Shown here piece after piece: positions 14,226 to 59,195 of a stretch of DNA of 64,000 bases. Each line of letters opens with the position of its first letter. Positions within the stretch are counted from its first letter, which is position 1. The translations under genes and the position numbers were made by a program. The notes below the pieces were generated by a model. It was not told where the DNA came from. It searched no databases and saw only the letters and a list, made by a program, of their open reading frames with translations. Source of the stretch: Myxococcota bacterium (GTDB lineage: Bacteria; Myxococcota_A; SURF-8; G963663525). The stretch spans positions 32,001 through 96,000 of the forward strand of contig CAXXVK010000012.1 of the NCBI GenBank assembly GCA_963676915.2. The letters are read 5' to 3'.

Positions 14226-14294
14226 GGCCGTTCCCCGCTAACCCGTATCCTTCGAATGAAACCGGCCCGGATAATCCGGACCGGGGCGATACCG

Positions 14295-14681
14295 TCAGTT
14301 CAGCCAGTGCTTGATCCGATCGAGCAATTCCTGCGGTTCGACAGGCTTGGGAATATAGTCCTCCGCCTCGCTTTCCAGCATGTCGCGGTGGGAATACGTG
14401 CTCGAAGAGACGTGATCCGCCACGGCAGTCAGCAGAATTACCGGAATATCCGCCGTATTGGGATCGCTTTTGATTTTGTCGCAGGCGGCGTGGCCGTCCA
14501 TTACCGGCATCATGACATCGAGAATCACGAGATCCGGATCGAAACCGGGAAGTTTTTCCAACCCTTCCTTGCCGTCATAGGCGACTTCGACTTTGTAACC
14601 GCCTTTTTCCACAACGGTTTTGATGGCTTCCACGAAATCCGGATCGTCATCCACCAACAATACTTTTTTCATTTCGCTCAT
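14295..14681 (-). CDS. Single-domain response regulator
   Basis: VLLVDDD, ILDVMMP, LLTA and KP motifs. Confidence 0.92.
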   Translation of the reverse strand: MSEMKKVLLVDDDPDFVEAIKTVVEKGGYKVEVAYDGKEGLEKLPGFDPDLVILDVMMPVMDGHAACDKIKSDPNTADIPVILLTAVADHVSSSTYSHRDMLESEAEDYIPKPVEPQELLDRIKHWLN

Positions 14682-14726: not shown

Positions 14727-15653
14727 TCAATCGACTTTCGGACGTGGCAGCAATCCCGCTCTCGATACGATTTCATTGACTTTTTCTTCCCACTCGATCG
14801 CCATGACGTGCACTCCGGCCACGCCTTCGATCTCCTTGACCCGTTCGATCGTTTCAATACACATATCGATGCCCTTTTGGGCCTGTTCCTCTTTGGGAAC
14901 CTCGCTGATGCGAGCAATCACCTCGTCTGGGATATCCATACCCGCGACCATACGTTTCATAAATTTGGCCATTCCGGCAGATTTCAACGGGGTTACTCCC
15001 GCCAGAATGGCGACCCGTTCGTGCAAGCCTTCTTTGCGCAACTCTTCCATGTAGCGCTCGAATTTTTCCAGGTTGTAAATGCACTGGGTCTGCACGAAAT
15101 CGGCACCGGCTTCGACCTTCAGCGACAGGCGAGGAACCCGTATTTCATAGGGATCTGCAAAGGGATTGACCGCACAACCGATAAAAAATTTCGGTGGTCC
15201 GTCGATCTTTTTGCCGGAAGGAAACACGCCTTCGTCTCGCATGGTTTTCACAAGGTTGATAAGCTGCATCGAGTCGATATCGAAGACGTTCTTGGCCTGC
15301 GGATCATCGCCGAAAATCTGGTGATCGCCGGAGAGGCACAGCAGATTCCGAATCCCCATCGCACTGGCACCGAGAATGTCGGACTGCAAAGCGATCCGGT
15401 TGCGATCACGAACCACCATCTGCATGTTCGGTTCGATGCCGTTTTCCTTCAACAGCAGACAACCAGCCATAGAATTCATCCGTACCACCGAAGTCTGGTT
15501 GTCCGTCACATTGCAGGAATCGGCGTTTCCTTGAATGAATTTGGCCTTGCGATGAACGACCTCCGGATCTGCGCCTCGTGGCGGCCCGCACTCGGCCGTA
15601 ACGGCAAAATGTCCCGCAGCCAGCACTTTTTCGAGATTGCTCCCTGATTTCAT
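14727..15653 (-). CDS. metF: Methylenetetrahydrofolate reductase, large subunit
   Basis: TAECGPPRG, NVTDNQ, RDRNRIALQSD, LSGDH and GADFVQTQ. Start MKSGSN overlaps the metV stop (ATGA). Confidence 0.95.
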   Translation of the reverse strand: MKSGSNLEKVLAAGHFAVTAECGPPRGADPEVVHRKAKFIQGNADSCNVTDNQTSVVRMNSMAGCLLLKENGIEPNMQMVVRDRNRIALQSDILGASAMGIRNLLCLSGDHQIFGDDPQAKNVFDIDSMQLINLVKTMRDEGVFPSGKKIDGPPKFFIGCAVNPFADPYEIRVPRLSLKVEAGADFVQTQCIYNLEKFERYMEELRKEGLHERVAILAGVTPLKSAGMAKFMKRMVAGMDIPDEVIARISEVPKEEQAQKGIDMCIETIERVKEIEGVAGVHVMAIEWEEKVNEIVSRAGLLPRPKVD

Positions 15654-16318
15654 TCCTGCAAATCCTTCCTGACGATGCGGCGCGGTCCGCCGTCCCGACT
15701 GGTGCGCCAACGTTTGAACGATTGCAACTTCCGGTAATTATCCAGTTGATTCAACGACTTGAGACGATCGACAATGAGTTGCCAACCACAGTCCACGTTT
15801 TTGTCGATTTCGCATTTTCCGTTGGACGACCCACCGCACGGGCCGTGGAACAGGCTTTTCGAACAACGCGTCACCGGGCAGATTCCACCGGTCAGGTGCA
15901 ACACACAGTCTCCGCAAGCCTGACAGCGTTCGGCCCACTCTCCCTGTCGCTCGGTCACTCCGATAAAAGCGGTGTTGATGCCCGGCAGCACAGGCACTCC
16001 CATGTAACGTTCGGCCATAAACTGCACACCGGCCCCGCAGGCGATGGACAACACGGCGTCGTGGTCCCGGATGTACGAATGCATGGTGTCGAGGTATTCG
16101 GGATCGCATTGACGCTCCAACGTTACCTCTTTGATTTGAATCGGCTTTTTCGCCGTTTCACGAGCCAGGCGGATCGTCGAGGCCAACACCTGAACTTCCT
16201 TTTCTCCTCCGGCGCGGCAGACCGTCACACAGCCGTGGCACCCGGCCAGCACGATGTTCTCGTACGGCTCGATGATGGCCATGATTTCTTCGAAGGGCTT
16301 GGCTTCTCCCATGATCAT
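15650..16318 (-). CDS. metV: MTHFR small Fe-S/Zn subunit MetV
   Basis: GCHGC..C, ERQCD, ACGAG, ERCQACGDC..TGGICP..RCSKSL.HGPCGG..C..CGW. GGAGG SD before ATG 16318. Confidence 0.92.
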   Translation of the reverse strand: MIMGEAKPFEEIMAIIEPYENIVLAGCHGCVTVCRAGGEKEVQVLASTIRLARETAKKPIQIKEVTLERQCDPEYLDTMHSYIRDHDAVLSIACGAGVQFMAERYMGVPVLPGINTAFIGVTERQGEWAERCQACGDCVLHLTGGICPVTRCSKSLFHGPCGGSSNGKCEIDKNVDCGWQLIVDRLKSLNQLDNYRKLQSFKRWRTSRDGGPRRIVRKDLQE

Positions 16319-16322
16319 GACG

Positions 16323-16778
16323 TTATCCCTCCTGGATACTCTGTGAGACAATCGACGACTCGGCCCGAACGAGGTTCAGAGGACTGGGACCGAGCTTCAC
16401 GATGTGTTCGGTCATATCCGCGACATGAGCGGCGAACTTGGCCCCTTCTCCGGCGCTGAGGTTGTACATTCGCGCCCGCTCTTCTCCCTGACCGGCTAAG
16501 GCAAGCAAGGCGGCGGCTCGATTCACTCTCTCTCTGGCTCGCAGATTCCCTTTGACGAAGTGGCAATCGCCCTCAAGACAGCCCACGACCATCACGCCGT
16601 CAGCGCCATTTTCGAAGGCTTTGAGAATCATCACTTCGTCCACGCGTCCCGTACAGGGAACCATGACGATCGACGTGTTTGCCGTGTAATGCCGACGTTC
16701 CGAACCTGCCAGGTCCGCAGCGGTGTACGCTCAATGGCGGCAGGCGAAAATCATCAAATTGGGTTCGAATTGTTCCAT
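16323..16778 (-). CDS. mvhD: Hydrogenase [2Fe-2S] subunit MvhD/FlxD, selenocysteine-containing
   Basis: Reads MEQFEPNLMIFACRH-TGA-AYTAADLAG..VPCTGRV..GADGV..GCLEGDCHF. The TGA (16731-16733) aligns to the conserved Cys of the N-terminal CxxC. Confidence 0.92.
16701..16717 (-). promoter_or_regulatory. Putative bacterial SECIS hairpin
   Basis: CGGACCU-GGC-AGGUUCG 7-bp stem. The loop begins with G, 20 nt after the UGA. Confidence 0.7.
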
Positions 16779-19700: not shown

Positions 19701-20435
19701 TGCCAGCACCGCCGCGCCCATACTTCGCTCGATTTCGGGAACCTCTGAAATCGCAATGGCGGAAAATTTCGGCGGACAGGCAAGATAGCAGGCTCCGCAC
19801 TGAATGCAGCGTTCGGAATCGATACGGGCCGTTTCTTTCTTTTTCCATTCGATCGCCCCAACCGGGCAACGGCGGAAACACATGCCGCACTTTTTGCAAA
19901 GGTCCTCATCGACGGTGAACGTCCAGCCGAATGGCGCTTTTCGGAACGCTTCGTCTACTTTTTTATAAGGAATCAACGAAACGTTTTGGCTATTCTTGAA
20001 TGTCGCAGGTTTGACCTTTTTGTCGGGATCTTGCGCGGGAAAATACGGTTTGTGCGTCACGGGACAGACGATCTCGCATTGTCCGCACCCCGTACAAACG
20101 TTGGGATCGACATAGCGCGGACGCTGCACTACTTTGGCTTTAAAATGGCCCATCTCCCCTTCGATGCTCTCCACCTCGCTGAAGGTCAGTAGGTCGATGT
20201 TTTTGTGCCGCCCAAGTTCCACCAGTTTCGGGGAAATGATGCACATCGAGCAATCGTTGGTGGGAAAGGTCTTGTCCAATTGCGCCATGCGACCGCCCAC
20301 GGCGGGAGAATTCTCGACGAGGTATACTTTGAACCCGGCGTTGGCGAGATCCAACGCGCTCTGCATTCCGCTGATACCGCCTCCGACGACGAGTACCGCC
20401 CCTACGGGAGAATGGGAAAACGAAGCGTTGCTCAT
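16788..20435 (-). CDS. hdrA: Heterodisulfide reductase subunit A-like flavoprotein (two FAD modules plus extra ferredoxin domains)
   Basis: VLVVGGGISG..LDKTFPTNDCSMC, multiple CxxCxxCxxxC, CVGSR..YCSSVCC, IGVFVCHCG, a second VLIIGGGLAG/CAGSR..YCSRVCC, and EAHAKLRPVDF. Confidence 0.95.
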   Translation of the reverse strand: MSNASFSHSPVGAVLVVGGGISGMQSALDLANAGFKVYLVENSPAVGGRMAQLDKTFPTNDCSMCIISPKLVELGRHKNIDLLTFSEVESIEGEMGHFKAKVVQRPRYVDPNVCTGCGQCEIVCPVTHKPYFPAQDPDKKVKPATFKNSQNVSLIPYKKVDEAFRKAPFGWTFTVDEDLCKKCGMCFRRCPVGAIEWKKKETARIDSERCIQCGACYLACPPKFSAIAISEVPEIERSMGAAVLARSDRLKKEFETGHDCLRCGLCQMMCDRVMGTGALRLSSEGIEVAKDVCRACGACVSVCPVEFLDITELSDNVPRPLLSEFNERLSPRKPIYIKYPQAVPRVPVIDTESCVQLNTGACGTCQSLCDAKAIDYTQKEIIHELDIGSVILSPGYEMFRAERRAEFGYGVYPNVMTSIEFERLLSASGPTTGKVLRPSDGTHPRKIAWIQCVGSRDVTCDRDYCSSVCCMYATKEAVIAREHDSDIEAAIFYIDLRAFGKNFDAYADRARDHYGVRYVRAMVSRVYDDPVTHDLELRYVDEEGKPTKESFDLVVLSVGVQVSEETKDLAKRLEIDLDRFGFAQTDTFRPLATNRPGFFVSGMFNGPKDIPETVSEASGAAGVAAGNLREARGSLVAKEEFPPERRFDENEEKRIGVFVCHCGINIASVVDVESVVEYAKTLPDVVYADHPLYTCSQDTQEHMRELIAEYGLTHFVVAACSPRTHEPVFQETLRQSGLNRYMFDMANIRDQCSWVHQDQPREATKKAKRLVTMAVANVAQAEPLQDHEFEVNSNVLIIGGGLAGMTAAIEAAKQGFGVYLVEREKNLGGNLRRLRRTVDGLSVSRYLYELMAQIKEYPKIQVFAGSQIVEHSGFVGNFETEIMTPAGVARTVRHGAIIVATGGRESRPELYGLGAFENVLTQLDLEVRIEGDDFKERNPHHVVMIQCAGSRCEEGLSYCSRVCCNQAIKNALRLKMLLPECRVDVLYRDIRSYGHSELHYRKAREAGVNFIRYDAIRNPIEVEVTQDGLTVAVVDPSIRRKLRITPDLLVLSTGVEASENEELASMLRVPRNPQGFFFEAHAKLRPVDFASEGLFLAGMAHGPKSIPETISQAAAAVARAATILSKDKLRMSGVVSKVNPEHCAVCLTCVRACPYGVPFINDKHAAEINPALCQGCGICVSECPAKAITLGRYEDKSIFSKITAFSAREMEQNAP

Positions 20436-21310
20436 GGTGTTCCCTCCTCCATACCGTTGTCACGAGACACGAGACGGGACAACACACCTCCGGCATCGAC
20501 GAGATGCCCTTTCCAAGCTGAAGAGTCGATACGATCGGAAAGAGCGAATTCGATCAATTCGCTCAGGTAGAAAATCGGAATCGGTTTCAGAGATTCATCC
20601 GCTTCCAGCAGATCCAATTGACGCGATTCGAGGTTGGCGTGACACATCGGGCAATCCGTCACAAGGACTTCCGCTCCGGCACGCCGTGCAGCATCCAGAA
20701 TATCACCGACGAGTTGCCGCGAGATATCCGGTCGGGCCATGGTCAGACTTCCGCTGCAACACTCTGTTTTGTGGCTCCACGCCACAGGTTCGGCCTCGAA
20801 CAACGTGACGATTTCTTCCATACGAGTCGGAATTTCAAACTGACTCTCTCCGGTAATTTTCGGGGGGCGCAACGATAAACACCCGTAGTAACAAGCGATT
20901 TTCAATCCTTCCAATCCACGCTGCGCCTTTTCTTTCAGGCGTTCTCTAAGTTCGGGACGATCGAGAAGATTGGAGATATGAACGACCTCGAAAGACGGGT
21001 CATACGCCTCGAATTCCCATTCCAACGGATCTTTTCGAAGCGCGTAATCGGCGGCCTTCAGGCGTTGATAACAGGCCGAACAAGGCACAAGCAGGTCGTG
21101 ACCTTCTTGCGAGGCAATCTCCAGATTCCGCGCCGAAAGTTTCACCGCCAATTCGTGGTTGATCATATGGGCGGACGACGCCCCGCAGCAGTTCCAATCG
21201 TCCAGTTCCACAAGTTCGATGTCCAGCAGTCCGGCGAGGTTCCGTACGGATTCATCGTATTCGCGGGCGGTGCCGGTAAGTGAACAGCCGGGATAGTAGG
21301 TCAGTTTCAT
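20432..21310 (-). CDS. hdrB: Heterodisulfide reductase subunit B (CCG domains)
   Basis: YYPGCSL, DWNCCGA, PCSAC, YYGCL, ECCSGS and DCPMCHANL. Start MKLTYY with an AAGGAG SD. Confidence 0.95.
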   Translation of the reverse strand: MKLTYYPGCSLTGTAREYDESVRNLAGLLDIELVELDDWNCCGASSAHMINHELAVKLSARNLEIASQEGHDLLVPCSACYQRLKAADYALRKDPLEWEFEAYDPSFEVVHISNLLDRPELRERLKEKAQRGLEGLKIACYYGCLSLRPPKITGESQFEIPTRMEEIVTLFEAEPVAWSHKTECCSGSLTMARPDISRQLVGDILDAARRAGAEVLVTDCPMCHANLESRQLDLLEADESLKPIPIFYLSELIEFALSDRIDSSAWKGHLVDAGGVLSRLVSRDNGMEEGTP

Positions 21311-21312
21311 GC

Positions 21313-21870
21313 CTACTTCTCCTTTGTCGTGCGAGCAAAGATCTTGCGAACGTCTTTTTTGCCCCGAATCGAGGGAGGAATCAGTTTCAGTTTCCCCTTG
21401 CCGAACATCCGCATTCCCAGTTTGAAATCGCCGAACCAATCGCCGCTACGCAGCTTGTACTCACCGATCATTCCCAACTCGTAGGTTCGACCTCCCCGAC
21501 GCACCGAATGAAGGAACGACCGGTGGAAAGCAACGATGTTCGGTTCGGCGGGTTCATAACCGCGATCCACGGACCATTGGCGCAAAAAGTCCATCGTTCC
21601 GGCGATGTCGATGTCGTTCGGGCATCGCGTCGTACAGGTTTCGCAAGAAGCGCACAACCAGATGGTGTGACTGGTCATCACGTCTTCTTCCATGCCATAC
21701 GCGCACATGCGAATGATTTCCATCGGCAGCAAATCGTAAAACGTCGCCAGCGGACATCCCGCCGAGCAGCGTCCGCATTGATAACAGGCGCTCACGTTCA
21801 ACCCGGCTTCGTCCAGGGCACGCCGGAATTTTTTACTCCCGCTCAACGGGGTTAGTGTCGATTCGTTCAT
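21313..21870 (-). CDS. hdrC: Heterodisulfide reductase subunit C
   Basis: CYQCGRCSAGCP and IWLCASCETCTTRCP. Start overlaps the upstream kinase stop. Confidence 0.93.
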   Translation of the reverse strand: MNESTLTPLSGSKKFRRALDEAGLNVSACYQCGRCSAGCPLATFYDLLPMEIIRMCAYGMEEDVMTSHTIWLCASCETCTTRCPNDIDIAGTMDFLRQWSVDRGYEPAEPNIVAFHRSFLHSVRRGGRTYELGMIGEYKLRSGDWFGDFKLGMRMFGKGKLKLIPPSIRGKKDVRKIFARTTKEK

Positions 21871-23420
21871 CCCGTTTCTCCGGTCTTGCATTGCTCGGTC
21901 ACGGTGAATTTGAGGCTGAATGTTGCGCCTTCACCGGGTTTGGAAGAAAGGTGAATGCTTCCCTTGTGTTCCTTGACGATGGCATAAGAAACGGAAAGCC
22001 CCAGCCCGGTGCCTTCCCCATGCGCCTTGGTTGTGAAAAACGGATCGAAAACCAGCGGCAGGTCTTGCTCGGCGATACCGGGACCATCGTCCTGGATGAT
22101 GATTTCCACGATGTCGCCCTGGCTACGGTGTCGGCTTTGCAGGAAAAGCCTGCCCTTCCCTTCCATCGCCTGAGCGGCATTGACGATGATATTCATGAAC
22201 ACCTGGTTGAGCCGTGCGGCGTTGCCACAGATGTTCGAAAGATCCTGTGCGAGATCGAGTTCGATTCGAATATTGTGAAAAAGAGGCTGTTTTTCCAACA
22301 ATGCCAGAGTTTTGAGCAGTATCTCGTTAAGATCCACGGTGGACATGTCGTAAGAGGTCTGGTGAGAGAACTCCAATAGATCCGTCACGATCACTTTGCA
22401 GCGTTCCGCCTCGTGAATGATCGTTTCCATGTCGGTAGCCAAAGGATGCTCGTCTCCCAGTTCCTCTTTTACGAGATTGGCGTACAACATGATGCCGGAC
22501 ATCGGATTGTTGATTTCGTGAGCCACTCCGGCAGATAAACGACCCAGACCGGCCATTTTCTCGGACTGCTGCAGCATCTGGTAGGTTCGCTCCAGATCTT
22601 CTTCGATTTTCTGGATACCCCGCAGGTCGGTAAAAATTCCGAACGTCGCGATTTCTTTGTCTTTTTCGTAAATAATGCCACCGGAAAAACTCATCGGAAT
22701 CTGGTGGCCGTCCTTGGTGATGGACAGCAATTCATGACGCAACAATCGCCCTTTGCCGCCGTACTCGTTACTGCGCATTCGTTGGATGATTTCGTAAGCA
22801 TCCCCTTCGGGATACAGGCGGGTGACATGCAGACTTCCGATGGCTTCCACCTCGGAATATCCCAAAATCGATTGAGCACCCTGGTTGAACAGGATGATAT
22901 TGCCTTTCATATCGGAGGCGATGATTCCATCCACCGAGGAATCGATCAAATTGCGAAAAAACGTATTGGAACGGATCAATTCGCGTTCGAGTTGCAAGCG
23001 GCGGTCGATGTCGATGAGAATGATACAATAGTAGTCGTATCCCCTTTCAGGAGCTATCGCCACGAATTCCGTGGAACGCATGGCATTGCTGACCTGATTG
23101 CGCAAGCGGATTTCCCGGCGAAACTGATCAGGAGCCTGTTTCGTGGACACAAAACGCACGAGATCGAGCATCAACTTCGGATCGTCGTCTAAAGGCAAAA
23201 GCGAAGGGAGACGAAGTTCCTGAAAACGGTCGAAAGAAAGTCCGGCAAAACGGCAGGCTGCCGGATTGGCGTAGAGGATGCTGTGGTCCTTTCCCACCAC
23301 CAACACCCCGTTGGGTGTCGCTTCGATGATCGTATACAGCACCAGATTCGATCCCATCCGGGAAACGAGTCTCGAAAGGGTGTTGGTCTGTAATTCGCTG
23401 TGGGTCGGTGTTTCGTTCAC
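21867..23420 (-). CDS. PAS-PAS sensor histidine kinase (NtrB-like)
   Basis: Two PAS domains, GVAHEINNP, NAAQA, DDGPG, FDPFFTTK and GTGLGL. Likely GTG start at 23420, right after the upstream stop. Confidence 0.9.
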   Translation of the reverse strand: MNETPTHSELQTNTLSRLVSRMGSNLVLYTIIEATPNGVLVVGKDHSILYANPAACRFAGLSFDRFQELRLPSLLPLDDDPKLMLDLVRFVSTKQAPDQFRREIRLRNQVSNAMRSTEFVAIAPERGYDYYCIILIDIDRRLQLERELIRSNTFFRNLIDSSVDGIIASDMKGNIILFNQGAQSILGYSEVEAIGSLHVTRLYPEGDAYEIIQRMRSNEYGGKGRLLRHELLSITKDGHQIPMSFSGGIIYEKDKEIATFGIFTDLRGIQKIEEDLERTYQMLQQSEKMAGLGRLSAGVAHEINNPMSGIMLYANLVKEELGDEHPLATDMETIIHEAERCKVIVTDLLEFSHQTSYDMSTVDLNEILLKTLALLEKQPLFHNIRIELDLAQDLSNICGNAARLNQVFMNIIVNAAQAMEGKGRLFLQSRHRSQGDIVEIIIQDDGPGIAEQDLPLVFDPFFTTKAHGEGTGLGLSVSYAIVKEHKGSIHLSSKPGEGATFSLKFTVTEQCKTGETG

Positions 23421-23421
23421 G

Positions 23422-24294
23422 TCAACGTCCGATACGATCCAGGAATTGGGGCAGACGCGCACCCCAGCCAAGCGAATGCAGCACCGCTCCGTCACAGACA
23501 TCTTGGATGTCCCGGTAAAAATCTGCGGCGATCGACAATCCGGCCTCGGCTTTGATTTTGGCGTCCAGCATGTCCTTGAGATATTCGTTGGGAACCGAGG
23601 GCACACCCGCCAGCCCATTGAGGTAACGGATCATTCCCACGGATTTAAGCAACATAAGCGTCGAAAAGACCTTGATTCCGGCTTCCTCCGCTTTGGGAAG
23701 AAACAGGTCGAGGATATTTTTGTCATAGGTAGGTCCAAGTACGATGAAACGAACTCCGTACTCGGCGTAGCGCAGAATATCGTCCGCACGTTTGCGATTG
23801 ATATTGATATCGTCGGACAGATCGAAACCGACGCCAAACGTAAACGCGGTCTTGCCTTCGATCTCTTCGCCACCAAGGTCTTTTCCCAGGTTCAACGCCG
23901 AAAGGCATTGCAGCATGGTTTCCAGCGATAAATCGCCACTCGAACGCACCAACGGTTGGTCCCCCCAATCCGGGTCGATACCTTCCTTGACAACCACGTT
24001 GCGAATTCCCAGCGCCCAGGCGGATAACAGTTCGGCTTGCAGGGAAATGCGGTTGCGGTCGCGCCCATTCATCACGATGACGGGATCTCCCCCGGCTTCG
24101 ATAAGATTTCTGGCGGGAGCCAACGGCGACATACGCATTACGGCATGTTCGCAATCCGTCACGGCCAGAGCATCGACTCGACCTTTGAGACTCGACACTC
24201 TCTCCATAAAAGTATCGAGCAACACGCCTTTGGGTGGATCGACTTCGGAAATCAAGGTGAACGAATCGCGTCGAAGCTGTTCGGCAAAACTCAT
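23422..24294 (-). CDS. Divergent MetF/MTHFR-like protein
   Basis: SEVDPPKG, AVTD..AVMRMSP and RDRNRISLQAEL are clearly paralogous to metF, but GDH is changed to GID and QTQ to LGP. Confidence 0.85.
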   Translation of the reverse strand: MSFAEQLRRDSFTLISEVDPPKGVLLDTFMERVSSLKGRVDALAVTDCEHAVMRMSPLAPARNLIEAGGDPVIVMNGRDRNRISLQAELLSAWALGIRNVVVKEGIDPDWGDQPLVRSSGDLSLETMLQCLSALNLGKDLGGEEIEGKTAFTFGVGFDLSDDININRKRADDILRYAEYGVRFIVLGPTYDKNILDLFLPKAEEAGIKVFSTLMLLKSVGMIRYLNGLAGVPSVPNEYLKDMLDAKIKAEAGLSIAADFYRDIQDVCDGAVLHSLGWGARLPQFLDRIGR

Positions 24295-24597
24295 CGAGCT
24301 TCCTCCTGCAAAAGTGGATGGGTTAAAAACCGAGCAGGACTCAGATGAGAGTGGAACCGTATTTTCGAGCGCAGATCACCCCGCGTTACTTCCTACAGGA
24401 AAAGCAACGTTCGCTGGAAGGTGGAACTTTCGCGTATTTCAAAATCACTATGTCAGGATATCAGGAGAAACCGGTTTCGTCAAGCTTTGTTATATAGGTT
24501 TGAAAATAAATTGCCGGTATTGCAGGAAATAATAAGTAAATGTCTGATTTTTCCACAACATACCAGCCATTACCTGTTACTTTCTATGATATTTCGA

Positions 24598-26178
24598 TCA
24601 GAATCCCTCTTCGTGCATTTTCTCGACGATCCCCCGATAAAATCCCAGGTGGTCGAAATCGCCGGATTTCAACTGCCCGATTTCATCGGCATGATCCGCA
24701 TTGACGTATCCCATGTATGTTCCCCATTGGGCACTATAGACAGGAACCATCCCGTCATTGGGACCATATCCTTCGTCTTCCGGTCCATTCTTGATCAGAT
24801 TGTACGTTAAAGACAACGCGGTGTTGACACGTTCATCGTCGTGTGCATTGCGGCAATCGAAATCTAGCATTCCGCAGGTATATCCCGACCATGACCAATA
24901 GGTTACTCGTTGGTCGTCGGGATGGGCCGGGTTGAATTCCCCTTCCATTTTGGCAATGGAAATCTGCTTGAGTGCTTCACGGATATCGCTTTCGGAACCG
25001 TCGATCAGATTACCGAAAAAGTCGATAATCGACGCTATCACGTCTTCGGAAACGCCCGTTACCGTGCCTAAAATCATATCGCCAAGAATCACGCCTCGGT
25101 TCGGCGTCGCCACCATGGCGAGCAAAGCCACCTCGTGACCATGATCTCTTCCGCTGATGAAAATCCGTGAATCTATGCCTCCCTGACTGTGGGCCAGCAG
25201 GTTCAGCTTTCTCGCACCGGTTTGGGTGAGAATATCCATGAACTGGCCTTCGATTTCGTCGGCGCGGTACTCGGAATTGTTGAACATCGCCGTTTCGGTG
25301 GTATGGATATCATAGCCGTATTCTTTGAGATGATCGGATACCCCATTGAAATAATTCAGCAACCCGAGCGCCGAATCGAATCCTGCCATCCCATGAACGA
25401 GAACCACGGGAAAACGTGTAAACCGACGGTCGCAATTCCCCACGCAGGAAGCATATACCCGGTAACGGCCCGTCGTCTGGTAAGCGGCACCGGACACCAT
25501 CAGCAGATATTCTCCGGAATACGGAAGATCCAGTTCGTAATCGATAATTTTGGGATTGCCTTCGCTATCTTCCTGGGACGTGTTGTCGTACAGCCAGACA
25601 GGCGCTTTACGTCCCGATGCTCCGGCGATATCGGTCAGCATGATCCGTCCCCGCAACGGATTCCCCGCCGTATTTCTCGGTTCGAGACGTATTTTGATGC
25701 GCATATCCGCACCACCGGCGATAAAAAACGCATCCGTTTGGCAATTTTCGGTAATTTCTCCGAAATATTCCCACCCGCTTTCACGAAATGTCGGGGTTGC
25801 CACCTCGGTAAACAATTCGAAAGGTTCGGTTCTCCACGTACAGACTCTTGCAGGCTCTTCCTCTTCGGCCTCTTCCTCGATTTCTTCCTCGTACTCGGGA
25901 GCCATTTCTTCTTCTTCCGGTTCGTCCTCGACCACAGGTTCCTCGTCGAGATCCGCCGGAGGAAGTTCCTCATCGAATTCGCCCGCCTCTTCCTCTTCAA
26001 CTTCCGAAAGGATATCCTCTTCCGGTTCCTCGTCGGCCTGTTCTGCCGGAAGATCGATATCCGTATCTCCGTTTCCATCCAGTGAGCCGGTCGAGCCGGA
26101 GGAATCACACCCCCACGCCAGCATTGCGATCCATAGCAGGAAAAACGCCCATCCCTTCCATGTCGATCCAATATTCAT
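24598..26178 (-). CDS. Lipoprotein triacylglycerol lipase (family I-like) with acidic linker
   Basis: Lipobox AWGC, Glu-rich linker, PVVLVHGMAGF, LLAHSQGG, TPNRG, NDGMV and ADHADEIG. Confidence 0.9.
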   Translation of the reverse strand: MNIGSTWKGWAFFLLWIAMLAWGCDSSGSTGSLDGNGDTDIDLPAEQADEEPEEDILSEVEEEEAGEFDEELPPADLDEEPVVEDEPEEEEMAPEYEEEIEEEAEEEEPARVCTWRTEPFELFTEVATPTFRESGWEYFGEITENCQTDAFFIAGGADMRIKIRLEPRNTAGNPLRGRIMLTDIAGASGRKAPVWLYDNTSQEDSEGNPKIIDYELDLPYSGEYLLMVSGAAYQTTGRYRVYASCVGNCDRRFTRFPVVLVHGMAGFDSALGLLNYFNGVSDHLKEYGYDIHTTETAMFNNSEYRADEIEGQFMDILTQTGARKLNLLAHSQGGIDSRIFISGRDHGHEVALLAMVATPNRGVILGDMILGTVTGVSEDVIASIIDFFGNLIDGSESDIREALKQISIAKMEGEFNPAHPDDQRVTYWSWSGYTCGMLDFDCRNAHDDERVNTALSLTYNLIKNGPEDEGYGPNDGMVPVYSAQWGTYMGYVNADHADEIGQLKSGDFDHLGFYRGIVEKMHEEGF

Positions 26179-27110: not shown

Positions 27111-27329
27111 GTCTTTTGGAGTATTTATGCCAAATTCTTTGATTCGAAACTCCTCCCGCTCTCTCTCCACAAACGATTTTTCGAAAACATACCTCTTTTC
27201 GAATGAAAATCTTTCGTTTTTCTGAACCTTTTTGGTATTCTTTGTGGAGTTTTGACGCATGAAAAATCAAAAAGGAAATTCAAACTCCTTTTCGGGATTT
27301 GAAGAGGTTTCACCTTGGAGGAATACGCA

Positions 27330-30300
27330 ATGAAACGCTCGTTTTTCGGCAGGCTTGCCGTTTTTCTTTTTTTGCTGATCGTATTCACAGGATTCGGTCT
27401 ATCCCATATGGCCTGCAGCAAAAAGAAAAGCAACGTCGAGAAAATCACCGCCGCGTTGGCGAATCGTTTGACCGAATCTTTGAGTTTCAGTGGAGATGTG
27501 GAACTCAAAGAGGGAAATCCTCCCAGTTCATCCAATTCCCCCGATGCACCGCAAATCACCAAGATCGACGCTCCAACTCGCTTTAGTGCTTCATCCCCAT
27601 TCCAGATCGTTCTAAAGACCGACTACCGCTATCCTTCCGAAATCGATTTCACGATCATTCACGTAGAAAACGCCTCGAAATACATTCTCGTCAAGCAACC
27701 GTTTTCCAAGGTAAAGCGCTTGCTACGGTCTAAAACTTTTGCTGACATCCTGGATTCGTCAACACGACTGACCGGAAGTATCGGCGACAATGAAGACATC
27801 AAAGAGCTTGATTTCGTCTTGTTTTTCGCTCTGCGCAACAAAGATGGACAAATCGGCGACTATCGACCCAGCGATTTCAAAATCCCCGAAGACCCACCCG
27901 ATTGCACCGATGAAAACTGCTGCAACGCCGGATTCTGGGTCGAGGCCGGATCGTCCTGCACCTCGGGGACCGACGAGTCCGACTGCACCGAAGACAAATG
28001 CAACGCCGAGCACGTATGCCAGAGCATTCCCGTCGTGGACGGCACGCTTTGCAACGCCGGTTTCGGTGTGGATTCGGGAGAATGTATCGAGGGAATTTGC
28101 GAGGAAATCGCCAATTATCTTCCAAACCTGCTAGCCGAAGCTCTGGAATACCAGACCGAAGGCGCTGTAAAACAAGGAGAGCCGCCGGAAACCAGTACGG
28201 AAGACAATCTGCCGAACATCTCCGAAATCATTCTTCCCGACGAACTTCGAGTCGGTTCCGATTTCAAAGTCATTTTGAAAACGGACTACGAAGCCACGGA
28301 AGAATTGGCCAAAGTCATCGTTCATGTCGTCGGTTCGGATCAATATATCGAATTCGCCAGTAACCTAACCACCGTTGACGGTGTGAGTGTCATCACATTG
28401 GCCGGGTTGATGAATCTGACACTCGAACTGAAAGGAATGGAATTCCAACTCTCGTTCGCTCTGCAAACGACACAAGGAGTTACGGGAACCTACAAAACGG
28501 TAAAAATCGTGATCCCGGAAGAGGAACCGGAATGCGGCATCGGAGCGTGTTGCAACGGCGGTTCGTGGGTCGCCGATGGTGACCCTTGCCTGACGGCCGA
28601 CGGTGAATACTGCACAATCGACACCTGCGATGCAAACCATAAATGTGTCTACAATGCTCGTCCCGATGAAACCTCCTGCAACGACGGCAACGACGAAACC
28701 GTCGGAGACCGCTGTGTCAACGGAATGTGTGCAGGAAGCGAATGCAATTGCTCGGGTGAAAACACTTGTTGCGACGGCTGCAAGTCCATCAACGAGGGAA
28801 ACACCTGTGATGATGGCGACTTATGCACCGAAAACGACACCTGCCGCTCCGGTGCCTGCCGATCGGGTAGCGACGTTGAATGTCCTACACCGGAAAATCC
28901 CTGCCTTGACGCAGGATATTGCCAACCGGAAAACGGCGAATGCACCTATCCCGAACCCAAAGCGGACGGATCGACCTGTGCGCTTAGCGACGAAGAAAGC
29001 GGCTTGTGTGAAAACGGAACATGTATTCGTCCTCCGGCTTTGCGAGTCGAATTGACCTGGGAAACCACCGATGCCACAAGCGAAGCAGGCTTCGACCTGT
29101 ACCTCGTCCGCAAGCGATCTCGAGGAACCTTCGGGCTTTCCCCGAAACCCGTCAGCGATCCCGAACCCATCTCCTGCGGAATCTGCAAAGACACCGAGGA
29201 AGCCTGTACTTCGGATTCGGACTGTGCAACCGACTCCGTGTGTCTGCCTAGTGCAACGATTTGTCTGGAACATGCAAGCTTCTGCCGCGCCGTCAACGAA
29301 CTCAACCCGGACGGCGAACCGCTCGTCACATCACTGGGATACCGTTGCGTACAACCGGATGACGGCATAGACGATACCTGCTGGATTGGAAATCCCGAAC
29401 CGACATGGGGAGAAACCGAAGCGAATCCGGTGTTTTCTTTCACCTCTACAGCAACCACCGGACGGGAAATTATCGAGATTACCAAACCAACGAACGACGA
29501 CGCCTACCGTGTTGTAGTCGCCCGAAGACAGATTGCGAACGAAAGCCAACCGGTAGAGGCCAAACTTGCATTTTACGTCGATGGTGTCGCTCATCAATAC
29601 ATCTCTGCAAATGACCAGACGGCAACCGACGGTCCACTGGTTCAAGCCATTTCCACAAACGGTTCATACTGGAAAGCCACCGACATTGTTTGGAGCGTAA
29701 TGGAAATTCGACAGATTCCGGTACACGATGAAGAAGCCGGACTTTCCGAAGAACCTTTCGCCAATCCGTTTTTGTTGTCCGATAGCACCTATGCGGTGCT
29801 CAATCCGAACGATTGTGACCAACTTCGCTCGATTTGGTGCGATTCTTCGGAAGATTTCGTGAACGAAGAAGAAACCGCCAGTTGCAACGATCTTTACTTC
29901 AATGACGTAACATGGTGCGTCTGCGAACCTTCCTGTGCGGAAAACGCTTCCTGCGTTGAAGGCGAATGCGTCTGTGATGAGGGTTTTTCCGGCAATCCTT
30001 ACGAATCCTGTACGGAAATTTCAGGAGGGGATGAGGATAGCGGAGACGTGGAAATTACCCCGACTCTCTGCCGGAACGACAACGACTGTTCTCCCGAGCA
30101 ACGTTGCGGAAAACCTCTGTACGAATGTGTTTCCCAAGAGTGCCCCGAAAACCTCGACTCCACCTGTCAGGCTCTTTATCCCGACAGCGACTACCAGATC
30201 CAATGCGACGAAAACCAGATGTGCGCTCCCGAAAAATGTACGGAAAACTCCTGGTGCGACACAGGATACGTCTGTGTTTCGGGACAATGTCGCCAGCCCG

Positions 30301-33300
30301 ACGATCCGGCGTCTATCACTTCAATTGAAATCAACGAGCCAGGCGAATTTCTGCCTCTTGGCGTCACTCGCAAACTAAGTTTCACGGCCTACGATTCCGC
30401 CGGAAACCCGCTGGCACTATCCGATTCTTTCGCGGTGAACTGGTCCTCCACCCAACCCACACAACTCAGTGTCACTCCACAAGGAGAAATCACAGCGTTG
30501 GCCGCAGGAAACGAAATTGAAATCAGCATCTCGGTACCGGAGCGTCAAGAACTTACGGATACAGTGCCATTCTCGGTGCTTTCTCGTTCAGGCGAAACAG
30601 CCGAACTGGTCGTCGTGAACGCCAGTACCGGCGATGTCATCGAAACTGCCACCGTGCTCCAGGGAACCGAACCTTGCACATATAGCTCTACGAGTCATAG
30701 CTACGTTTGTTCATCAACCTGCGCAGCCGTTCCCTGCAACTTCCATGTGTTTCACTCTGAGTACGAATACGTTTCGATCTTCCAAACCTCAAGTGAATTC
30801 GTGCACATACCGCTGACACCCAACGAAAACCTTGGGGAAGTATCGGGCGTGCAGGGAAAAATGGACATTACTTCGCTCCCGCAAGTATTGCTCAATGAGG
30901 ACATGCTGACCACCCAGTCCGGTTTTGCTCTGAACGGCAACTGGATGAACCGTGGTTTCCGAAATTTCCTGAGCGAATCGGTGAACACTCATCTGGAAAT
31001 TGGCTCTTTTATCAATCAACACCTCGACTTCTCCTCAGGGGCAGAATTGGAGATAGGTACTTATTCCACCCGTACAAAATTCCAAATCGTCACCCCCTTC
31101 CAATCGAATGGCTCGGCATCCATTTGGGGATTTGGCGGACGTATGCCCCTTTTGGACGTAATCAATATTATCACGCCGAACATCAGCAACGAGTTAGATC
31201 TACATACTCTTCTAATAAATATTGAACCATTGTTCTGGGAGAATCTCTGGCATGCGGCAACCGGACTACCCACCGAAAACCACAGCAAACAATGGGATGA
31301 TTTCAGTCAAATCAACTACCTGGACGACCTCTCCGAATTCGAAACACTCTCCAATGGAGCATCGTTACAGGCTGTCATGCCGTTAACCGGCGAGGCCGAC
31401 TTGGAATTTGGTTCCATGCCTTACCTGCCAACGGAAACAGAAGAAGAAGCCTGCTCGCAGATAGCTTTGACCTTGGTGGCGGCCCAGCATCCTAAGTACG
31501 GACTTGTGCCGTTGGGCTTCGGTGTCGGACCCGACGACGATTCCCTTTGCGGTGATGGAGCTTCGTTCCATCAAATCGTGCGATTCGCCCCGCAACACGG
31601 CAACTTGTACGGTTTCCCCTACGTACTCATCACGCTGGCCACGTTTAACGACAGCACGGATATTCTGGGAACGGAAGATTGGTATACCTTCGGATTGTTC
31701 GATTTCGCCTCTACATTCTTCAACGTTTTGGCGCTGCATTCGGCGGCCAGCTTTACCGTGCAGCGCTCGCAGACGATCCCTTCGGGAATTCTTTCTACAC
31801 CTGAATTCGCCCCTTCCGTCACCAATGCCACCTACGACGACGAAACAAAGGCATTTGGTGCATCCACCGACTCTGAAGCAACGTTTGCCCGCGTAACGTT
31901 TTCCAACGAATACGACCAATTCACGTCATTCTGGCAAAAACGGCGCTGGACCGTCTACAGCCCCGCAAGCGATCAAATCGCTTTCAACCTACCGCAAAAC
32001 CTCGATGGGGTGGATTATACGAGAATCTCGAAAATCGAAGCCGGAACCGCCCGTCTGAAAGACGGGACAACATCCTTGACCTACAACGATGTATTCAACT
32101 TCAACGGCACCGATCTTGCAAACATCAATTCTCTGCTCGAAAGCTTCAGTTCTACTCCTCTCCCAATAAATACCTGCGCAAACGTATCCTGCGGACAAGA
32201 AGCTTATTGCGACCAGGAAACCGGCGAATGCGTCTGCTACAATTCCGACTGGGGCGGCAATCCTTACGACTACTGCTACGATCTCTGCGTTTTCGTTGAA
32301 TGCGTAAATAATGCCTCCTGTTTCCGTGGCGAGTGCTCCTGTGACGCCGGATACGAAGGAGACCCCGAAACCGAATGCCTGCCGCGAGAAGATTTCGTCG
32401 CCACCATTATCGATTTCGGCAGCGGAACGCCGGTTCCTTCGATGCGAGTCAATATTCTCGAGCACTTGGGCGAAGAATTCGGCTTCGAAGAACCGATTGT
32501 CGCCGACGAAAACGGAAAGGTCGTCATCAGCTATCCCGTTTACACGGATGAGTTGTATCCTTTCCTGGCCGACTTCCTTGTGTATGGCGATTCAACCAGC
32601 GTCGATACCTATCAGTTCAGCTATCCTTCCTTAAGCGACGACTCTACGCTTTACAGTGTCTCCCAGATAACCTATCAAACGGCGCTTATCACGGCAGGAG
32701 GGGAAATCGAATCGAATACCAACCATGTTTTCGGAATGCTTCTGTGGGAGGACTCGGAGGGCGAAGAGCAGCCCGTAGGCTGCGCGACCATTTCCATTAC
32801 CTCCGCAAATGGCAATTCAGGCAGCGAAGCCGTTCGGTATTTCGGAGACAACGGCTTGCCTACGACGTTGGCAAACCAGTCTTCCATCAACGCCAATCAT
32901 GGGGGATTCCTGATCGGTAACGTGCAACCCGGCGAAGCAACCATCCAGGTCATGACCTACGACAACGAGATCTATTCCCTGGATATTCTTGCCCGTTCGG
33001 ACGCCGCAACCGTGGCCCATATCGTATTGCCCCACGGTCAGTTCTCGGAAAACCCCGGTCCCTGCTCCGGAGGGGTCACCTGTCAAACAGGATATGTCTG
33101 GGCTGAGGGAGAATGCCGAATTGCCGGATTCAGCGGTGAATGCCTGGAAAACTGCACCAATGAAGATTGCATCGACAACAGCGGCATGTGTACCCAGGAC
33201 AACGGCGAGTGCATGCCCGTGTACTGTCGTAGTCATGACGACTGCGCAGACCTCTGGCGCTGCGATGGTCCCGACACCTGGCCGGGGTGGTTCGGCTGCG

Positions 33301-36300
33301 ATTACGTGACGCGAAAATGCTACCGTGGCGTAGGTCCGGACCCTGATTTCTGCGAAGACTACGACGGCGGGCATTATTGTTGCCAGAACGACGATCCTTG
33401 TGGATGGGGACAAAACGGCATTTGCGATTGTGAAACCACCTGCGAGTGGGACATTTCCGACTGTACCGATTACTGCCAGGGTGTAACCTGCGCGGCGCAC
33501 GCTCACTGTGAAATTATCGATTACGACGGCGTCTGCGTCTGTAACAACGGATTCACAGGCGATGGCGCAACCTTGTGTGAACCAGAACACGACTGCAACG
33601 AAACCGGCTTCGAATGCACGGTAGAGAATTCCTATTGTACGACGGAGGGATACTGCGAATGCAACGAAAGCTATGAAGGCGATGCCTACGACCAATGCAA
33701 ACCGAATCCCTGCTTTGAGGTGCAATGCGGTGAAAATGCCACTTGTAACGAAGGTATCTGCTATTGCAACGATGGCTTCGAGGGCGACGCTTCCACGCTT
33801 TGCACTTTGATGTTGCTGTACTGCGACGAAGAAGATGAATGCCCCACGGGCTACCCCTGCCATGACATCGAGCATCGATGCAGGGAAACGGAATGCGACA
33901 CCACAACAGAGTGCGAAAACCGCTATCCGGTGCTCGAACCCGGAGACGCAGCCATGGAATGCGGCGAAGACAATCTCTGCTACCCGCGGCCCTGCCGCAG
34001 CGATGGAGAATGCACCAGCGGATTTACCTGCATGGCGGCTCGCTGTGTCAAAACCGCAGAAGTCGTCCAAGTCTTTTACCTTGAAATCCTCAACGGTTCC
34101 AGCCCCTTACCCGTTGGTGCTTCGATACAGCTTCATGCTGCTGCTTATGACGAGGGAGACAAAATCCTTCCCTTCGACGCTTCGCAATTCGAATGGTCAA
34201 CGACGAATACCAACGGCTCGGTGACAGCGGACGGCCTGTTTACCACCGTATCGGAAGGTTCGGTCAGTGTTGAAGTCTCGGTATCAGGAACGGTGGAACG
34301 TTCTGCCACGGCAACGTTCCGTATCGTCGGGAATGCTACAGCCGACACCGTACGCGTTCAGGTGATCGAGGAACATACGGGGGAGATCATCTCCGATGCG
34401 CACGTCTACCAAGGAGAAACGCAACTGACATACGATGGGCAAAGCGCTTACACAGGAGCCGCCTGTCCGCAATACACCTGTGATTACCATATCTTCCACC
34501 CGGACTACGCCCACGTTTCGATCATGAAGACCACAGCCGAAGACCTGTTGATCCCTCTTGAACCGAACCAGAAACTAGGACAAGTAGAGGGACTTCGAGG
34601 AAACATCGACATGTCGGCCTACCCCGAAGTGTTGCGAGGACAAGACGTTTTCTTCACTCAATCCGCTTTCGCCATGAATGGCAACCTGATGAACCACGAT
34701 TTCGGCTCGATATTGGGAGAACTCGTGGATACCCCCATTCATTTAGGATCGCTCATAAGCGACGACCTGCCTGTTTCCTCTGGATATGTCGGTGGTTTGG
34801 CAAACTCCAACTTCCGCGAGGAGTTCGATATTGTTGGAAAGCCGTCTTCCTTTCCTCGCTACGCCTGGACGCTTGGAGGATATACCGACCTGAGCAGCGT
34901 GATCGACATCATTAGCTCAGACGAAAGCGAAGGAAATCCGGCGTACATGTTCTCGGCCCTCCATCAGCTTTTGGATGGAACCCTCTGGCACGGCACGTCT
35001 GTTTCCAGCGATTTATCTGAAGTTTCAGGTAGTTGGGACACCGAAAACAACAACCAGCCTCTCTATTTCGGTAGTTTGCCGGAACGCTCCATGGCTGTAA
35101 CCGAACCCACAAGCCAGAGAATCTCGGTTCAGGTTCCTGCCCAGTCTTCGATTCCTACCCTCGAAAGTTCCTTATGCCCGGACGTGCTGCTTTCCGTCGT
35201 GACCGCCAACCGCTTCGGATACGGTCAAATTCCACTGGGATACTCCATATCGCAACTGGAAACGGGCTGCACGAGCGGACGAACCCTCGACATCGGCTAC
35301 GCTCCTCAGCACGACGGCATGGACGATTTCCCCTACAATATCATCGTAATGGCGCTGAATCTGAACGAAGCTTTAGCCGATGAAAGTATCGATACACTCT
35401 ACTATTACCTGTTCTTCGAGCCAGCATTTATGTATTACTATTTCCCGCTGGTTACGTCTTTCGGTTCGATGTCCGTCTACCGCGTACAGGCTGGAGAAAT
35501 GCCACCTCCCAGCCTCGACGCTCCCCCTGCTTCGAAGTACGTCGCCAATGCCGTATGGAATCCAAGTACGTTGCAATTCACGGCAGAGGGCGTTCCCGGT
35601 GAATCCCTTACCCGCGTAACCTTCAGCAAGGATTTCGATGCCTACACCAGCGTTTGGGAACGGAAACGGTGGATTGTCTATTATCCCAACAGCCTGACCG
35701 TGGACTTTACCCTTCCCACTGGATTGGAAGGTTCGGAATCCACACGTCTGTACAGCCTCGAAGACAACGCCATCGAAGCCCAATCAGCACGAATGACTCT
35801 GGAAAACAGCGGTGCTCTCATTGGCTACGACGCGCTGCTGGAATTCAACCAAACCAACCTCGACCGAGTAAACCAGTGGTTGGAATCCACCAGTTACTTC
35901 CCGGTTGTCCAGGATGAATACGTAGATCCCTGCGAGTCGGTTTCCTGTGGCACAAACGCCCATTGCGTCGAAGGCCACTGCGTCTGCGATACGGGCTATG
36001 AGGGAGATCCCACCACCGAATGCACAGCCGTCGTTCTGCATGATTTCAGTGCAACGCTTATCAATGCTTCAGGCTCGAACGTCAGCAACATTCCGGTGCA
36101 AATCTATTCAACGGCAACAGGAACGGAACTGACAAGCGAGCCGTTGATTTCCGATGCAGAAGGAAAAATCTATTTCGATTATGCAGAACAACAAAGCGGT
36201 ACGATAGATATCCTTGCTTCGGGCAACGACATGTATCGGAATTCATCCACGTATTCCCTGGACCCGTACTCGCAAAACGTCGAGTTGCTTTTGTATGAAA

Positions 36301-58669: not shown

Positions 58670-59195
58670 ATTGTGACCTCCGGTTCGGTCGAGCTGAATT
58701 TCTGCACAACAATAATCGCTTCTACGAAAAGATCGTCTCCCCCCGTTCTGTGCGTTCTCGTTACTATAGCAGATTTCCTCGATTCCCAAGCTGAAAACAT
58801 GAAAAAAGCCTTTCACTGCCGAAACGATCTGAGATGCAATGAAGAGTGTAATCAGTCGAGTGGTCATTTTCTAAAGATTTTGAGAAGAAATCGGATCTTA
58901 GGTTTTCTCATAGGAAGGATCGTTAAGTTTCGTTCACATGGCAGAACGATCTGTAAAGGGAAGTTGTCTTTGGGGGAAATCTTGTCAAATATCCAACTCA
59001 TCGCCAAAGGAACGATGTGAAAGCAAATCGAAGACGAAAAACAGAACCTCTCAAAATAAAAGATCTAAAAAAGCGTTATAATTCCAGCATGTTGAAAATA
59101 CTGGACAAGATTTCTCCGTAAAGGCAGGATAAAATAAGGACAAAGAAAAAACATAGTTTTTTCCTTTCCATTTAAATCGAAAGAATATCCGTTTA

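Follow-up and report, generated by a model that had tools for sequence, protein, structure and literature searches.

Organization of the Operon

The window analysed here is a stretch of 64,000 nucleotides (nt) from a Myxococcota bacterium (assembly GCA_963676915.2, contig CAXXVK010000012.1, positions 32,001 to 96,000). Its minus strand carries an operon headed by a divergent paralog of MetF, the methylenetetrahydrofolate reductase (MTHFR). This paralog, called MetFp below, and the histidine kinase HK1 encoded next to it are the main subjects of this report. The operon was larger than the first-pass annotation of the window had it. It comprised ten genes which, in transcription order, encode MetFp, HK1, HdrC, HdrB, HdrA, MvhD, MetV, MetF, a stand-alone receiver (REC) and a hybrid kinase combining REC, PAS and kinase domains (Table 1). 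The rimM and trmD genes were found downstream.

Table 1. Location of the operon genes and associated signals, in window coordinates and in the order of transcription.
Feature	Position	Strand	Basis and remarks
Sigma-70-like promoter match TTGACG-17-TATCCT, TG ahead of the second hexamer	24455..24483	-	consensus match only; about 160 nt 5' of the MetFp ATG
MetFp, MTHFR-fold paralog without the canonical folate-side and flavin-side residues, 290 amino acids (aa)	23422..24294	-	open reading frame (ORF), Pfam, NCBIfam, BLASTP, hhalign, column comparison
HK1, soluble PAS-PAS-HisKA-HATPase histidine kinase, 517 aa from GTG 23420	21867..23420	-	Pfam
HdrC-like protein, 4Fe-4S dicluster domain	21313..21891	-	Pfam, NCBIfam
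HdrB-like protein, two CCG domains	20432..21310	-	start placed at the ATG that opens MKLTYYPGC; the ORF as listed reaches 21439
Double (fused) HdrA, 1215 aa	16788..20435	-	NCBIfam HdrA2, 994 bits; Pfam
MvhD (FlpD) ORF, 113 aa	16323..16664	-	108 bits; profile positions 33-123 only
MetV (PF12225, listed as DUF5981)	15650..16351	-	Pfam, 123.8 bits
Canonical catalytic MetF with SGDH, QTQ and GVHVM	14727..15653	-	Pfam; alignment
REC, stand-alone receiver, 128 aa; DDD, D of LDVMMP, T and K positions kept	14295..14681	-	sequence
G+C-rich hairpin of 10 pairs between the REC and hybrid kinase genes	14262..14284	-	pattern match only
REC-PAS-HisKA-HATPase hybrid kinase, 489 aa	12756..14225	-	Pfam

The first two genes almost touch each other. 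A single nucleotide had been reported between the MetFp stop and the likely kinase start, and this was confirmed: the TGA at 23424-23422 is followed by one C and then by the GTG at 23420. The 3' end of the HK1 gene overlaps the start of hdrC. An AGGAGG sequence was present approximately 8 nt 5' of the MetFp ATG. The consensus scan that was used for sigma-70-like sites gave three of them in 12.3 kb, with 7.7 expected. No sigma-54-like site was observed upstream of MetFp, and no Rfam family, riboswitches included, matched the window or the MetFp leader. None of the ten genes encodes a DNA-binding regulator. A stop codon located just upstream of the MvhD ORF indicates that this protein is short at its N-terminus or that its start is unusual.

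The HdrC, HdrB, HdrA, MvhD, MetV and MetF genes form a set of the 6S type encoded together at this locus. The same six genes, in the same order hdrC-hdrB-hdrA-mvhD-metV-metF and with a fused double HdrA, specify the hexaheteromeric HdrCBA-MvhD-MetVF MTHFR of Moorella thermoacetica (PMC8515935, section 13; PMC8760232). The window operon differs from it by the addition of the MetF paralog and the PAS kinase on the 5' side and of REC and the REC-PAS-kinase hybrid on the 3' side. None of these four genes is named in the available text of the classifications of MetF complexes into the 2S, 3S, 6S and X types.

Residue Changes in MetFp

MetFp matched the Pfam MTHFR family (PF02219) with 28.5 bits for a cut-off of 24, and the window MetF with 147.3 bits. 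The MTHFR half of NCBIfam model PRK08645 gave 119 bits on MetFp, and the hhalign comparison with an alignment of canonical MetF reached a probability of 100% (E 1.4e-59). By BLASTP the two proteins of the window were 24% identical over 291 columns (E 1e-26). In sequence searches of the PDB, no solved MTHFR was matched by MetFp or by the MetFp family profile. Four pairs of motifs could be aligned between MetFp and MetF: SEVDPPKG with AECGPPRG, RDRNRIS with RDRNRIA, KEGIDPDWGDQP with LSGDHQIFGDDP, and FIVLGPTYD with FVQTQCIYN.

The Asp of the GD loop (Asp120 in E. coli, Asp109 in Thermus) is needed for the folate half-reaction of MTHFR. The LSGD Asp of the window MetF aligned with this Thermus Asp109, and the second Gln of its QTQ motif aligned with the Gln of the Thermus ITQ motif, which we take to be the equivalent of E. 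coli Q183, with a role in folate and NADH binding. Positions were transferred with the help of an alignment between the Thermus MTHFR and the window MetF and of the available text of Igari 2011, where Thermus Asp109 is equated with E. coli Asp120. The identification of the GD Asp with E. coli D120 in the first-pass annotation was correct on this basis.

Columns were compared across three sets, made of 42 MetFp sequences (52-69% identical to the window protein), 36 divergent relatives and 60 sequences of canonical MetF. D110, the GD loop Asp of the window MetF, is replaced by H/I106 in MetFp; the window protein has I at this place, and 83% of the family have H. The Q188-T189-Q190 motif, conserved at 100% in the 60 canonical sequences, becomes T/V-L-G. 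On the flavin side Q78, which corresponds to Thermus His77 beside the flavin N5, is replaced by I/V74. H282 (Thermus His270, hydrogen-bonded to the catalytic Glu) is replaced by V271, and T19, a relay partner of the Glu, by I15. N48, K179 and G219, each invariant in canonical MetF, are also replaced. The residues kept are the catalytic Glu E17 (E. coli Glu28, Thermus Glu18), PPKG, T46-D47, RDRNR and G111-D112. E17 is invariant in the 42 MetFp sequences, although its two relay partners are lost. The segment G105-x-D107-P108 is also invariant in the 42 sequences. Its Asp stands one residue past the canonical site and hhalign places no gap there, so that the canonical Asp appears displaced rather than simply absent. 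MetFp therefore resembles the canonical enzymes of E. coli, Thermus thermophilus and acetogens in its fold family, its Glu and the PPKG, RDRNR and GD(H/Q)P motifs, and departs from them at the GD Asp, the QTQ, the Gln/His on the N5 side and the His partner of Glu. The first-pass annotation had described the passage from LSGDH to KEGIDP and from VQTQ to VLGP relative to the downstream metF, with the Glu of SEVDPP and RDRNR retained, and had viewed MetFp as lacking residues needed for the MTHFR reaction. The alignment agreed with these descriptions and the losses were more extensive than listed, as they extend to Q78, H282 and T19.

The substitutions H/I106, L186, G187 and V271 were fixed across the family, which indicates that the residue pattern of MetFp is not due to chance. 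Sixty-six of the 290 columns were invariant among the 42 sequences. MetFp is a conserved family under purifying selection and no decaying gene. Normal MTHFR chemistry is unlikely for this protein, since positions invariant in canonical MetF have been replaced and then fixed. The loops that normally form the MTHFR pocket are the most conserved parts of MetFp, and they may correspond to a remodelled pocket.

Linkage of MetFp and HK1

HK1 contains the Pfam domains HisKA and HATPase_c and two PAS domains. All the catalytic boxes of the kinase (H, N, G1, F and G2) are retained without change in each of the 42 orthologs compared, and the second PAS domain is highly conserved. The best solved matches of the PAS region were the heme-PAS domains of FixL and DosP, and they were weak (E 1.6e-7 and weaker).

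The MetFp loci were collected by scanning one genome per species and keeping the best 80 of 187 relatives. In this set, 79 loci had at least 300 nt of sequence downstream of MetFp, and an HK1 ortholog was directly 3' in 78 of them. The last one had 431 nt downstream, with only a weak match to the N-terminal part of HK1. The identities of the orthologs ranged from 45.7 to 69.0% over the 78 loci, and from 52 to 67% for the full-length pairs. Of the 71 complete pairs, 63 had at most 20 nt between the two genes. The complete series MetFp, HK1, HdrC, HdrB, HdrA and MetV was found in the order of the window at 49 loci. In a sample of 101 genomes (even sample, order around G401), in which 14 kinase candidates were scored per genome, orthologs of MetFp and HK1 occurred in the same four genomes, where they were adjacent, and the other 97 had neither. 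MetFp and HK1 are strictly co-inherited, and synteny could not demonstrate a closer link than the one seen here.

Distribution of the Operon

Through a word-index search 499 proteins about 290 aa long were obtained; their sources were Desulfobulbales-type bacteria and metagenome-assembled genomes labelled Myxococcota. The named MetFp relatives among them were labelled methylenetetrahydrofolate reductase. In the phylum of the window, true MetFp (more than 450 bits) was present in 5 of 401 genomes, all belonging to the order of the window. This restriction suggests that the operon was probably transferred between phyla. Two matches of intermediate score in this phylum, in genomes G051 and G048, were rejected as MetFp; they were ordinary MetF genes, one of them accompanied by MetV. 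The operon was also present in cultured strains, namely Desulforhopalus singaporensis, Desulfopila aestuarii, Desulfoprunum benzoelyticum and Desulfosediminicola flagellatus. Orthologs of the hybrid kinase were found 3' of metF at loci L084 (67% identity) and L085 (91%) and in five of five Desulfobulbales genomes.

The genome containing the window carries acsB/cdhC and dsrAB. It also possesses a second HdrC-HdrB-HdrA-MetV-MetF cluster on contig C73 (about 61279-69364), whose MetF is 63% identical to the window MetF. This cluster is devoid of MetFp, histidine kinase, REC and REC-kinase hybrid genes.

A Wider Clade of MetF-like Head Genes

A profile search among 1.84 billion representatives gave 3317 matches. 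A quick tree was built from 117 rows. One of its branches, supported at 99% in the Shimodaira-Hasegawa-like approximate likelihood ratio test, separated 85 mostly canonical MetF from 32 rows in which the QTQ and the TGD Asp are mostly missing. MetFp was nested among the latter, with P0122, P0125 and P0124 as its nearest sisters. No description of this divergent clade was found in the literature searches.

The genomic context was then read in an arbitrary sample of metagenome loci, 39 divergent and 41 canonical, taken among the matches listed; the counts of this section refer to that sample. HdrA was located within 400 nt on the 3' side in 29 of the 32 divergent loci with at least 600 nt downstream, versus none of 33 canonical loci. 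In the three remaining divergent loci the 3' gene encoded an HdrC, a kinase (a locus of the MetFp type) and an Fe-S protein. MetV was immediately 5' of the gene in 0 of 24 divergent versus 24 of 33 canonical loci. It was located further downstream in 14 of the 17 divergent loci with at least 5.5 kb of downstream sequence. From these counts, the usual order is a dead MetF-like head gene, HdrA, MvhD, MetV and MetF, with no kinase in between. The coupling of MetF paralog and kinase put forward in the first-pass annotation holds for MetFp itself, both at the individual loci and across the sampled genomes, and does not extend to the wider clade, which in 29 of 32 loci adjoins HdrA without a kinase.

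Kinases could be seen on the other side of some head genes. At L107, the gene just 5' of a related MetF-like head gene encodes a kinase with three PAS domains that shares 50% identity with HK1, and at L137 a PAS-PAS kinase and a REC-histidine kinase lie upstream of another MetF-like gene. By reading of the gene maps, a kinase match was present within about 2.5 kb upstream in 8 of the 39 divergent loci. Two-component genes inside an Hdr-MetVF cluster also exist in the Chloroflexi DscP3 genome, where phoBR-like genes flank metF_1 of an hdrABD-mvhD-metVF cluster (PMC5736913), a situation similar to that of L103, L115 and L146. In the available text of PMC5736913 a dead MetF paralog is not mentioned and the two-component genes are given no functional interpretation, and the DscP3 cluster differs in this from the window operon.

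At position 2277-6479 of L104, a 1400-aa HdrA fused to an NfnB/GltD-like NAD(P)H module was observed directly 3' of a dead MetF-like gene. The presence of selenocysteine in related MetF-like genes was considered and rejected, since the in-frame TGA codons proved to be the genuine stops that terminate these genes.

The Receiver Gene and Its Association with Head Genes

Ten Hdr-linked metF genes of the metagenome loci among the matches listed had at least 450 nt of sequence downstream. In all ten the next gene was a REC ortholog (40-50% identical), and a head gene was visible upstream in seven. Five Desulfobulbales genomes, each with several Hdr-MetVF clusters, showed the same association. REC followed metF in 10 of the 10 clusters with a head gene (five of the MetFp type and five of another type) and in none of the eight clusters without one. 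On the tree of catalytic MetF, the clusters possessing both head gene and REC corresponded to two lineages and those possessing neither to three; the association of head gene and REC thus rests on few independent events. The constant companion of the wider clade is REC, and not a kinase.

The window REC was 70-73% identical to those of Desulfobulbales, which makes it more conserved than MetFp or HK1, and its phospho-acceptor residues are kept. Natural fusions were also observed. In P0229 a canonical MetF is joined to a REC 44% identical to that of the window, and in P0137 a MetF is joined to a degenerate REC. A third protein, P0223, combines a helix-turn-helix DNA-binding domain with an MTHFR domain having canonical motifs, which indicates that the MTHFR fold serves as a regulator domain elsewhere.

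A third type of Hdr-MvhD-MetVF cluster was seen in Desulfobulbales (L176, L179, L181 and L182). In this type a divergently transcribed REC-kinase hybrid gene lies 5' of HdrA, and neither a head gene nor a stand-alone REC is present.

A Proposed Model for the Role of MetFp

We propose that the operon encodes a methylene-tetrahydrofolate (methylene-THF) reductase of the Moorella type, HdrCBA-MvhD-MetVF, accompanied by its own phosphorelay made of HK1, REC and the REC-PAS-kinase hybrid, and that MetFp would be catalytically dead, with a remodelled pocket. This is the best explanation of the gene content and of the residue pattern. The single most likely mechanism, which is a tentative one and agrees with the sensor reading of the first-pass annotation, is that MetFp acts as the sensory partner of HK1. 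The grounds for it are the replaced and fixed residues of MetFp, its linkage with HK1, the kinases found 5' of some head genes, the lack of the whole signalling set in the C73 cluster, and the P0229 and P0223 fusions. In this model MetFp would bind a ligand and contact HK1, to which it would report the state of the one-carbon (C1)-folate pool or the state of the reductase complex. HK1 would transfer a phosphoryl group to REC, and REC would in turn act on the catalytic MetF/MetV module by contact with MetF. The natural fusion of MetF and REC gives some support to this last contact. In a more general form of the hypothesis, the dead MetF paralog and the CheY-like receiver may constitute a conserved module that places methylene-THF reductases of the electron-bifurcating type under phosphorelay control. 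In operons of the MetFp type, the dead paralog would serve a dedicated PAS kinase as its sensor for the state of folate or of the complex. This hypothesis is possible, if somewhat doubtful.

A related arrangement is known in Ralstonia eutropha, in which HoxBC and HoxJ form a cytoplasmic hydrogen sensor made of an enzyme homologue and a soluble PAS histidine kinase (PMC6978683). MetFp and HK1 would work alike, an enzyme homologue being paired with a PAS kinase. According to the available text on this system, HoxBC still turns over H2, whereas MetFp has lost catalytic residues, and the window operon has no counterpart of a DNA-binding regulator.

Several observations weigh against a sensory role of MetFp towards HK1. 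In a mirror-tree comparison of 50 operons, the raw r of the pair MetFp-HK1 was 0.80, below that of every other MetFp pair, and its partial r was -0.11, as compared to partial r values of 0.32 for MetFp-HdrA and 0.28 for MetFp-MetV; this test is crude and length-sensitive, and it favours long proteins. No fusion of MetFp with a kinase was found among proteins of 509-2000 aa, which is weak evidence. The origin of the wider clade does not lie in a partnership with kinases, given that its 3' neighbour is nearly always HdrA and is a kinase only at the locus of the MetFp type, and the constant presence of REC described above points in the same direction. Finally, a flavin-free yet active MTHFR is on record in Mycobacterium (PMC8515935, section 13), so that the missing canonical residues are no proof that MetFp is inactive.

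The role of MetFp might also lie on the output side. MetFp, like its relatives, would then work with REC and not with HK1, and phosphorylated REC would bind proteins of the MetF fold. MetFp would be a regulated stand-in or decoy, either taking the place of the catalytic MetF in the Hdr-MvhD-MetV complex or blocking it, and HK1 would sense by its own PAS domains. The strict presence of REC behind metF, in the Desulfobulbales clusters with a head gene as in the metagenome loci, its absence from the eight clusters without a head gene, the P0229 and P0137 fusions and the high conservation of REC are in favor of such a role. We nevertheless consider it rather unlikely. The REC association comes down to the two and three MetF lineages mentioned above, the partner of REC in the fusions is the catalytic MetF and not the dead paralog, and the coupling of MetFp with HK1 in 78 of 79 loci is left unexplained.

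It is less likely that MetFp is a structural pseudo-subunit, the alternative offered in the first-pass annotation. MetFp would in this case be a non-catalytic part of the Hdr-MetVF complex; it could, for example, pair with MetF and form the inactive half of a heterodimer carried by the asymmetric fused HdrA. The kinases would do no more than control transcription of the operon. The adjacency of head gene and HdrA among the divergent loci listed and the co-variation of MetFp, which is strongest with HdrA and MetV in the mirror-tree comparison, agree with this possibility, and fused HdrA proteins that break the two-fold symmetry are discussed in the available text of PMC9012536. However, Hdr-MetVF clusters exist without a head gene (the C73 cluster and the eight Desulfobulbales clusters), the operon has no DNA-binding regulator gene, and the strong conservation of the putative pocket loops would probably be needless in a mere scaffold.

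An active MetFp with altered chemistry, either a flavin-free or rewired reductase or an enzyme acting on another pterin or C1 carrier, would be compatible with the retained Glu, with the Asp kept one position past the canonical site and with the mycobacterial precedent, but it is very unlikely in view of the joint loss of five active-site positions invariant in canonical MetF, the lack of a match to any solved MTHFR and the presence of a canonical MetF in the same operon.

Our preferred model of MetFp as a sensory partner of HK1 concerns a reaction of some importance, as the reduction of methylene-THF is the step of the Wood-Ljungdahl pathway with the least understood energy coupling. In the available parts of the reviews, the partner reactions of Hdr-MetVF are still unknown and the regulation of the complex is not mentioned. 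A dead MetF paralog heading Hdr-MetVF clusters, or a kinase tied to one, is not described in the available text of PMC7117923, PMC7325909, PMC2702500, PMC10553843, PMC3156243, PMC5736913, PMC9012536, PMC6978683, PMC7911925, PMC8760232 and PMC8515935, of which the supplementary gene maps (PMC10553843) or alignments (PMC8515935) may show such genes. The conserved package of dead MetF, PAS kinase, receiver and hybrid kinase offers a handle on how anaerobes sense or throttle the C1 flux. If MetFp does sense the state of folate or of the complex, this would be the first two-component system reading the C1-folate pool. The occurrence of the operon in cultured strains makes bench testing possible. 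Furthermore, the members of the divergent clade are at present labelled as ordinary methylenetetrahydrofolate reductases in the databases, and metF copy counts in genome papers can be inflated as a result. An example may be the Desulfobulbus genome in which, in the available text of PMC7117923, two metF copies were taken as functional.

Other Features of the Window

The gene located 5' of the operon (24598-26178, minus strand) codes for a protein of 526 aa whose N-terminal part is of low complexity and very acidic, and which gave weak matches to lipases and alpha-beta hydrolases. On the plus strand, a giant ORF of 3266 aa extends from 27315 to 37115, with only a weak Big_1 match. A second large ORF on this strand (40084-43983, 1299 aa) has only an N-terminal receiver domain by Pfam, and the surrounding AT skew is very high (0.33-0.36). 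Two further signalling genes were observed on the minus strand, 30 kb off the operon: an FHA-GAF sigma-54 activator (56885-58867) and another PAS kinase (50682-52490).

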